Part shown: in pieces, positions 18,124 through 18,807 of the stretch
Layout of the letters: every line of letters starts with the position of its first letter
Numbering within the stretch: position 1 is the stretch's first letter
From: Escherichia coli
GTDB lineage: Bacteria; Pseudomonadota; Gammaproteobacteria; Enterobacterales; Enterobacteriaceae
Length of the DNA: 64,000 bases
Strand: one strand, 5' to 3'
Assembly: GCF_044324785.1 (NCBI RefSeq)
Contig: NZ_CP172127.1
Translations under genes and position numbers: made by a program
Notes under the pieces: model-generated
What the model saw: the letters and a program-made list of their open reading frames with translations, nothing else
Told to the model about the DNA's origin: nothing
The model's database searches: none

Positions 18124-18321
18124 ATGTCAGAAACTATTACGGTGAATTGCCCAACCTGCGGGAAAACGGTGGTGTGGGGTGAAATCAGCCCGTTTCGGCC
18201 ATTTTGCTCCAAACGTTGTCAGCTGATCGACCTCGGAGAATGGGCTGCTGAAGAAAAACGAATCCCCAGCAGTGGCGATCTTTCCGAAAGCGATGACTGG
18301 AGCGAAGAGCCAAAGCAGTGA
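18124..18321 (+). CDS. yacG: DNA gyrase inhibitor YacG (zinc finger)
   Basis: 65 aa with CPTCGK...C..C motifs. Confidence 0.93.
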
Positions 18322-18325
18322 CATT

Positions 18326-18420
18326 TTGTCTGATGCGACGCTGGCCTGATAAGACGCGCCAGCGTCGCATCGGGCATCTTGTGCAAATGTTGGATGCGGC
18401 ATAAACGCCTATCCGACATA
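18326..18420. repeat. REP/BIME cluster between yacG and mutT
   Basis: tgatgcgacgctggcctgataagacgcgccagcgtcgcatc is palindromic, followed by ggatgcggcataaacgcctatccgacat. Both match E. coli REP consensus types. Confidence 0.85.
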
Positions 18421-18807
18421 TACACGCTTAAGCTTCGCAAGTACCGGTTCATTGGCTGGCGGAAAATCATCGGCATTCAGACCGACCAGCGCCATCCACT
18501 CACCGGGTTGCCCTTCTTTACCCCACGGCTCCCCTTCCCAGCTTTCGACCAGCCAAAACCACAGTGTTATATGCCTGTCCGGGAATTCATATTCCAGTTT
18601 TTCAAATAGCGAAAAATGTTGTGGGGTAATCCCGACCTCTTCCTGAAGTTCACGCACCACCGCCTGTTCCGGCGTTTCGCCCATTTCAATTTTACCGCCG
18701 GGAAACTCCAGTTTATTCGCCATGTGCGCATCTGCTGCGCGACGCGTTATAAAGATTTCATTGTTCTCGTTGCGAATAATACCTACCGCAATTTGCAGCT
18801 TTTTCAT
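18409..18807 (-). CDS. mutT: 8-oxo-dGTP diphosphatase (Nudix)
   Basis: 132 aa starting MKKLQIAVGIIRNENNEIFITRRAADAHMANKLEFPGGKIEMGETPEQAVVRELQEEVG (Nudix box). The last three codons and the stop lie inside the REP element. Confidence 0.93.
   Translation of the reverse strand: MKKLQIAVGIIRNENNEIFITRRAADAHMANKLEFPGGKIEMGETPEQAVVRELQEEVGITPQHFSLFEKLEYEFPDRHITLWFWLVESWEGEPWGKEGQPGEWMALVGLNADDFPPANEPVLAKLKRVYVG

Follow-up and report, generated by a model that had tools for sequence, protein, structure and literature searches.

Alternative in-frame stop codons within a conserved REP element at the 3' end of mutT in Escherichia coli

Results

Genes and repeats at the yacG-mutT junction

The DNA analysed, referred to here as the window, is a 64,000-nt stretch from Escherichia coli in which mutT converges on yacG, the pair being flanked by zapD and secA (Table 1). 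The mutT product is an 8-oxo-dGTP diphosphatase of the Nudix family, based on 97% identity to PDB 1mut over residues 1-129 (E 3.5e-85), and the Nudix box (GX5EX7REUXEEXGU) is intact in the translated protein as G38-x5-E44-x7-R52-E53-L54-x-E56-E57-x-G59-I60. The translated ORF gives a MutT of 132 residues that ends ...AKLKRVYVG and is followed by a TAG stop, whereas the mutT of K-12 MG1655 is 390 nt long and encodes 129 residues that end ...AKLKRL, again followed by TAG. This difference in length had been proposed in an initial annotation of the window and was confirmed here. All solved structures of E. coli MutT, 1mut and others, are of the 129-residue form. Outside the tail, three residues of the window protein differ from K-12: S89 (R in K-12), A105 (S in K-12) and L123 (I in K-12). 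The 731-bp locus has 100% identity with that of E. coli strain N3, for which a 399-nt mutT is annotated (WP_000736011.1; PGAP/RefSeq).

Table 1. Positions of genes, REP elements and related features in the window.
Feature	Position	Strand	Remarks
yacG CDS	18124-18321	plus	convergent with mutT (ORF list; N3 annotation)
19-nt inverted repeat	18327-18376 (arms 18327-18345 and 18358-18376)		89% complementary; predicted 14-bp perfect stem in RNA
z2-type REP, opposite in orientation to the y REP	18340-18375	plus	29/29 identity to the K-12 z2 copy
Crossover interval of the one-unit deletion	18346-18358		in CTGATAAGACGCG; from comparison with APEC17 (L005, 201-bp spacer) and other loci
Linker joining the z2 and y REPs of the BIME-2 unit	18376-18388		13 nt, read from the sequence
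Degenerate y-type REP	18389-18421	minus	26/34 to the REP consensus, 1 deletion; orthologous copies 29-32/34
mutT CDS	18409-18807	minus	132 codons and TAG stop (ORF list)
Stop in use, TAG	18409-18411	minus	at the AA-mismatch position of the REP stem (GGATAAGG)
Position of the REP GTAG box	18418-18421	minus	reads ATAT here
y REP	57419-57450		blastn-short
z2 REP	57466-57501		blastn-short
z2 REP	62825-62859		blastn-short

The mutT reading frame runs into a degenerate y-type REP whose 5' box lies on the mutT mRNA strand. The two overlap by 13 nt, comprising the third base of codon 129, codons 130-132 and the stop, so this REP is not fully extragenic; in K-12, 4-5 nt of the y REP are inside the mutT CDS. 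The initial annotation was therefore right to place the mutT stop within a REP. It had also assigned all of the last residues, ...KRVYVG, to REP sequence, and this applies to Y130, V131, G132, the stop and the third base of V129, but not to K127 and R128. The REP string that it quoted, ggatgcggcataaacgcctatccgacat, is present at 18392-18419, one base away from the position given for it (18393-18420).

On its own, the window y REP matches the REP consensus weakly (17/19, E 0.3 by blastn-short; the consensus used, GCCGGATGCGGCGTGAACGCCTTATCCGGCCTAC, is quoted from PMC12306157), and without orthologues this copy would not be confidently called a REP. It aligns base for base with the mutT-proximal REP of K-12, and orthologous mutT-proximal copies match the consensus at 31/34 positions in O157:H7, 29/34 in K-12 and 32/34 in Ceylon31. 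Judged from these alignments, the window y REP is best read as a decayed copy of a true REP and not as a non-REP sequence. The GTAG box, which reads ATAT in the window, is GTAT or GTAC in the other 132-residue alleles; K-12 and every other 129-type E. coli allele retain it unchanged.

Further REPs elsewhere in the window comprise a y and z2 pair (57419-57501) and a z2 copy that is followed by another REP-like palindrome; at both sites the repeats lie 10-22 nt from the flanking ORF ends, with no overlap. Used as a query, the locus matched a median of 4 places per genome in complete E. coli genomes.

Two in-frame stops in the mutT-proximal REP

Read in mRNA sense, the mutT-proximal REP has the form G TAG GTC GGA TAA GG, which contains two stops 9 nt apart in one frame. 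The first, TAG, is the GTAG box without its leading G, and the second, TAA, is formed at the AA stem mismatch. K-12 (CGT CTG TAG GTC AGA TAA GGCG) uses the first of these, so that its own mutT stop is REP sequence as well. In the window (CGT GTA TAT GTC GGA TAG GCG) and all other 132-residue alleles, the first stop is gone (TAG to TAT or TAC) and termination occurs at the second. MutT of the window is longer by three residues because this substitution opens the frame to the second REP stop. TAA is kept at the second stop in many 132-residue alleles (loci L007, L008, L012, L014 and L015); the window has a 1-nt deletion (TAAGG to TAGG, giving GGATAGG) that changes this stop from TAA to TAG and leaves a single A at the AA/GC stem mismatch, where most alleles keep AA.

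Relative to K-12, the window REP differs by substitutions and the one 1-nt deletion, and the 128-bp indel that separates the two loci lies wholly on the yacG side. We accordingly set two changes apart. The three-residue difference is interpreted as the loss of a stop codon within a conserved REP, and the three added residues as translated REP stem sequence. The proposal in the initial annotation that REP turnover had remodelled the 3' end of mutT is thus upheld in part: a REP does encode the end of the gene, and the spacer does differ by gain or loss of REP units, but the C-terminus changed through a stop substitution in an orthologous REP.

Distribution of the two forms in E. coli

We read the tails and spacers of 20 E. 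coli loci, spread over the similarity ranking. The C-terminus and the spacer are not the same in all E. coli; the strain alignment shows both to be polymorphic. Among these loci, the 129-residue tail is encoded by CTG TAG GTC [G/A]GA TAA and the 132-residue tail by GT[G/A] TA[T/C] G[T/C]C [G/A][G/A]A TA[A/G], the added residues being YVG, YAG, YVE or YVR. Spacers are either short (87-99 bp) or long (201-215 bp), and all four combinations with the two protein lengths occur: short with 132 residues (window, N3, O157:H7), short with 129 (Ceylon31, strain 1943), long with 132 (APEC17, ECA64, STEC299, O145) and long with 129 (K-12, ATCC 8739).

A census of 5,426 complete E. coli genomes was conducted with 40-nt haplotype probes, whose design placed the diagnostic sites within every 28-mer megablast seed. 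The two main 129-type probes matched 3,157 genomes and the six 132-type probes matched 1,948, including O157:H7, O25b:H4-ST131 and O127:H6 E2348/69. Single-nucleotide-variant probes accounted for 187 more genomes (60 rows sampled, 41 of them 129-type and 19 132-type); these probes covered 5/8 parental haplotypes (7,987/12,373 nt), and 134 genomes are thus outside the assigned totals. Overall, about 60% of the 5,426 complete genomes are 129-type and about 37% are 132-type, with about 134 in neither class, these being proportions for probes that cover only about 30-40 nt and for a collection biased to clinical and laboratory strains rather than for a natural population. The allele in the window is ordinary and widespread in E. 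coli, and the 132-residue MutT, carried by roughly one in three sequenced E. coli, is a normal allele rather than a peculiarity of one strain or a mistake of annotation. The exact haplotype of the window, GTA TAT, is a minority form (2/60 sampled 132-type rows). Three of the 3,157 129-type probe matches were on records typed as plasmids.

One sequence, NZ_OZ197100.1 (locus 84-482, long spacer), has CTG TAT and encodes ...KRLYVG, without the usual change of Leu129 to Val; the existence of this allele indicates that stop loss alone is viable. A neighbour-joining tree of mutT (384 nt, 30 variable sites) was poorly resolved and had the 129-type in two places. The two types do not sort cleanly by this tree or by strain background (ST648 is 129-type and IAI39 is 132-type), and between O157 and Ceylon31 there is essentially no difference beyond the two tail sites. 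The 132-residue form may thus have had one or more origins, with recombination, recurrent mutation or both contributing to its distribution.

Template switching that perfects the hairpin was considered as a source of the paired C to G and G to T changes, which are 5 nt apart, and was rejected as a simple explanation on the grounds that the bases between them mismatch the complementary arm. Further evidence against it is that the gain in predicted stability is only 1.8 kcal/mol, that C to G alone brings no gain and that the CTG TAT intermediate exists.

Other Escherichia and other genera

A scan of one genome per species yielded five other Escherichia lineages: E. albertii, E. whittamii, Escherichia sp. 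MOD1-EC7003, Escherichia sp. E1V33 and SCPM-O-B-8794. MutT has 129 residues in all five, with the stop at codon 130 (TAG in three, TAA in two) followed directly by the REP stem (GTC[G/A]GATAA), and in all five the spacer contains about two or more BIME-2 units in tandem. K-12, every sampled E. coli and the five other Escherichia species share one orthologous mutT-proximal REP. Based on the 129-residue proteins and the adjoining REP stem of these outgroups, the overlap of gene and REP predates E. coli, and the 129-residue form is ancestral and the 132-residue form derived within E. coli. Similarly, the presence of about two or more units in the outgroups implies that the window spacer, with its single unit, is derived and arose by deletion.

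The GTAG box is intact in three of the five other Escherichia and reads TTAA in MOD1-EC7003 (L021) and E. whittamii (L023), in which GTAG persists in the internal y REPs of those arrays (box loss just after locus 1587). That the stop is kept in these two lineages and the GTAG lost suggests that the stop, not the box, is under constraint there. The SCPM-O-B-8794 sequence (NZ_JAATUR010000005.1, L024) is labelled E. coli; its MutT is 89% identical to that of the window and groups with those of E. whittamii and E1V33 on the mutT tree, and it is probably from a cryptic-clade strain filed as E. coli.

For other genera, 80 loci were classified by direct reading; a crude motif scan, which misclassified L022, L024 and L043, was used only alongside this reading. 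Many Enterobacter and Leclercia have a mutT that ends at the TAG of its own REP (...TAG GCCTGCTAAGCGAAGCGCCAGCAGGC). Some Citrobacter end at TAG GCCGGATAAGG (L045), and another (L047) ends at GCC GGA TAA GGC, which is the same second-stop position as in the window. The REP is 7-11 nt past the mutT stop in most species of the C. freundii group, and in Buttiauxella and Kosakonia, which are without REPs here, mutT almost abuts yacG. Over longer time scales, then, the arrival of REPs at the convergent junction probably helped to define the end of mutT, and to this extent the turnover proposal of the initial annotation holds. A Salmonella-like mutT (...RQFAP) was also found on a 424-bp contig with 0.83x coverage (QXHL01000193.1) in an assembly labelled 'Alicyclobacillaceae bacterium', and this looks like contamination.

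The yacG-mutT spacer and its BIME-2 units

The spacer between yacG and mutT measures 87 bp in the window and 215 bp in K-12, a difference of 128 bp that is close to the shortfall of about 120 bp given in the initial annotation. The z2 REP of the window has GCTG in place of the GTAG box, and the linker that joins z2 and y REPs is identical in all E. coli loci compared. Long spacers contain two z2-linker-y units about 35-40 bp apart. There is one BIME-2 unit in the window and two in K-12, compared with two to three or more in other Escherichia.

Sequence to the left of the crossover interval in the window corresponds to unit 1 of long-spacer relatives and sequence to its right to unit 2; the window thus keeps the left edge of unit 1 together with the z2 and y REPs of unit 2. 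In the short spacers of O157:H7 and Ceylon31, unit 1 is fused to mutT within the y REP, and in EC0585 the crossover falls inside the y REP. Because different parts of the units are retained among short spacers, the deletions are considered independent. We interpret the short spacers as products of recurrent unequal recombination between tandem BIME-2 units, which is how such arrays are known to behave (PMC3333891), and the spacer difference of 114-128 bp as the deletion of one such unit on the yacG side, separate from the change at the C-terminus.

The inverted repeat in the spacer starts 6 nt past the yacG stop and is formed by a partial z2-like fragment, the pairing partner of which is the inner arm of the z2 REP. 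Like mutT, yacG thus has a predicted hairpin of REP origin within 15 nt of its stop. Neither a sigma-70-type promoter-like site nor an intrinsic terminator was predicted in the spacer.

Insertion sequences occupy the yacG-mutT spacer in two strains. GDAR2-2 (NZ_CP074407.1, locus 200-1577) carries IS621 (IS110 family) between a GTAG box and the foot of a z2 REP, the order being ...CACGTAG, IS621, GGCCTGATAAG..., and 23AR0806 (NZ_CP195434.1, locus 1-1564) carries IS1397 (IS3 family) in the loop of a z2 REP. Both are classic REP-targeting insertion sequences, and their targeting is documented (PMC1525189). About 325 of the 5,426 genomes are without contiguous coverage of the locus, so large insertions at yacG-mutT may be fairly common.

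Predicted properties of the protein tail and the transcript

An alignment of 34 enterobacterial MutT proteins is conserved up to L126 (...FPPANEPVIxKL), after which there are tails of 3-9 residues without conservation. The AlphaFold2 model of the 132-residue protein has a mean pLDDT of 90.4 and a terminal helix at 117-130, with residues 131-132 non-helical and of lower confidence. Given the variable tails across the Enterobacteriaceae, the free variation of residues 131-132 and this model, the added tail residues are most likely neutral for the enzyme.

Folded as RNA, the 119-nt mutT 3' region has two strong predicted hairpins (-50.8 kcal/mol, z -4.7), and the last four mutT codons and the stop are in the 5' arm of the first. 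When an otherwise identical pair of sequences is compared, the hairpin with the two usual substitutions is predicted to be 1.8 kcal/mol stronger (-26.2 vs -28.0 kcal/mol), a gain that we do not take as evidence of selection. The distance from the REP hairpin to the mutT stop is 0 or negative, and is thereby within the <16 nt associated with ribosome stalling (see below). By analogy, a REP hairpin at or before the stop would be expected to lower mutT translation in both allele types. The yacG stop, 6-9 nt from the predicted REP-derived 14-bp stem, appears to be within the distance for translational damping by REPs as well.

Discussion

Origin of the MutT tail and the short spacer

We propose that stop loss in a conserved REP and a separate, recurrent deletion of a BIME-2 unit explain the MutT tail and the spacer, respectively, and we give this explanation a probability of roughly 85%. 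A BIME-2 array of alternating z2 and y REPs separates the convergent mutT and yacG, and a y REP with its GTAG box on the mutT mRNA strand abuts the reading frame. The ancestral mutT, like that of K-12, stops at the TAG of the box, and its 129 residues end KRL. Many E. coli, the window among them, have a changed box in which TAG has become TAT or TAC, as a rule together with CTG to GTG or GTA, and translation proceeds through Tyr-Val-Gly to the second stop to give 132 residues. Separately, unequal recombination between tandem BIME-2 units deleted one unit, repeatedly, in different lineages.

A different possibility is that the polymorphism is functional, in that a stop 9 nt deeper in the hairpin, or the YVG residues themselves, would alter the level or activity of MutT and with it the rate of A:T to C:G mutation, both alleles being maintained by selection. 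The high frequency of both alleles is consistent with this, as is the slight strengthening of the predicted hairpin by the usual substitutions (-26.2 vs -28.0 kcal/mol), and REPs near stop codons are reported to stall ribosomes, according to the account in PMC12306157. However, the difference in hairpin energy is small, the extension residues vary freely (G/E/R at 132 and V/A at 131), following mutations of the REP stem, and the tail region is unconstrained across the MutT family. We therefore consider selection on the two alleles unlikely. It is very unlikely, in our estimation, that the y REP is a two-position terminator cassette, with a stop switch that alters ribosome stalling, tmRNA tagging and MutT dosage and also inactivates the REP as a transposase substrate; were this the case, lineages would differ heritably in 8-oxo-dGTP sanitisation and in A:T to C:G mutation rates. 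If control by REPs at stop codons does apply here, the antimutator gene mutT would be among its targets and the two alleles would constitute a natural experiment.

The new C-terminus and the shorter spacer could also have been produced in one event, through a REP being newly inserted, replaced or deleted at the 3' end of mutT. Whole REP-containing units are indeed gained and lost in the spacer, IS621 and IS1397 insert there in some strains, and the mutT tail, which varies from genus to genus, is frequently terminated by REP sequence. A single event is nonetheless highly improbable, based on the fact that the proximal REP is collinear base for base within Escherichia and the C-terminal change amounts to one or two substitutions, and that strains with a long spacer and 132 residues exist alongside strains with a short spacer and 129 residues. 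Repetitive elements such as REPs might in principle be assembled wrongly, but the chance that the tail is an artefact of sequencing or assembly error in a repeat, or of annotation choice, is negligible, since at least 1,948 complete genomes, all independent, have the same tail type and PGAP annotates the 399-nt mutT.

Comparison with known REP systems

Stop loss combined with unit deletion, the explanation we prefer, can be set against several systems described previously. BIME-2 elements consist of inverse z2 and y REPs in tandem, with a copy number that varies between strains (Bachellier et al.; PMC3333891). The mutT-yacG locus is alike in having z2 and inverse y REPs, a short linker and one to three or more tandem units; there is nothing unusual in this arrangement, and the window represents a minimal single unit in which both GTAG boxes are degenerate. 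Binding and cleavage by TnpA-REP depend on both the GTAG box and the AA/GC stem mismatch (Ton-Hoang et al. 2012, PMC3333891). By analogy, the REP-associated transposase would be expected to act poorly on a copy with a mutated box, and it probably no longer uses the window REP, which has ATAT for GTAG and a single-A bulge.

Ribosome stalling and reduced translation are reported for REPs that are <16 nt from a stop codon, as summarised in PMC12306157 (Liang, Rudd and Deutscher 2015). Against that summary, mutT is alike by distance, the hairpin being at the stop in the 129-residue type and before it in the 132-residue type, and it differs in that the stop of the 132-residue type sits inside the stem. 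The supplements of PMC12306157 do not mention mutT or yacG.

Small repeats that are fused to the 3' ends of ORFs are known to extend proteins (Delihas 2007/2011, PMC3184786; Rickettsia RPEs). As in those cases, repeat-derived codons at mutT specify the C-terminal residues of a conserved protein. The differences are that only three residues are involved and that they were gained via stop loss and not by insertion of a repeat into the gene.

A further parallel is with the GTAG REPs whose termini often supply the TAG stop of flanking ORFs (Di Nocera et al. 2013, PMC3733652). The K-12 and ancestral mutT conform to this pattern, as their stop is the TAG of the y-REP box and the REP lies between convergent genes, unlike the window, where the box is mutated and a second stop from the AA stem bulge is used. 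REP-donated stops are already known, then, and mutT is a further documented instance. We found no description, in the literature searched, of the backup-stop arrangement or of the pair of 129- and 132-residue mutT alleles. As we read the aligned loci, the twist at mutT is a modest one: two conserved REP motifs form in-frame tandem stops, such that one substitution yields a fixed allele, longer by three residues, that is now common. The locus shows how conserved REP motifs can double as stop codons, and is otherwise mostly a matter of bookkeeping.
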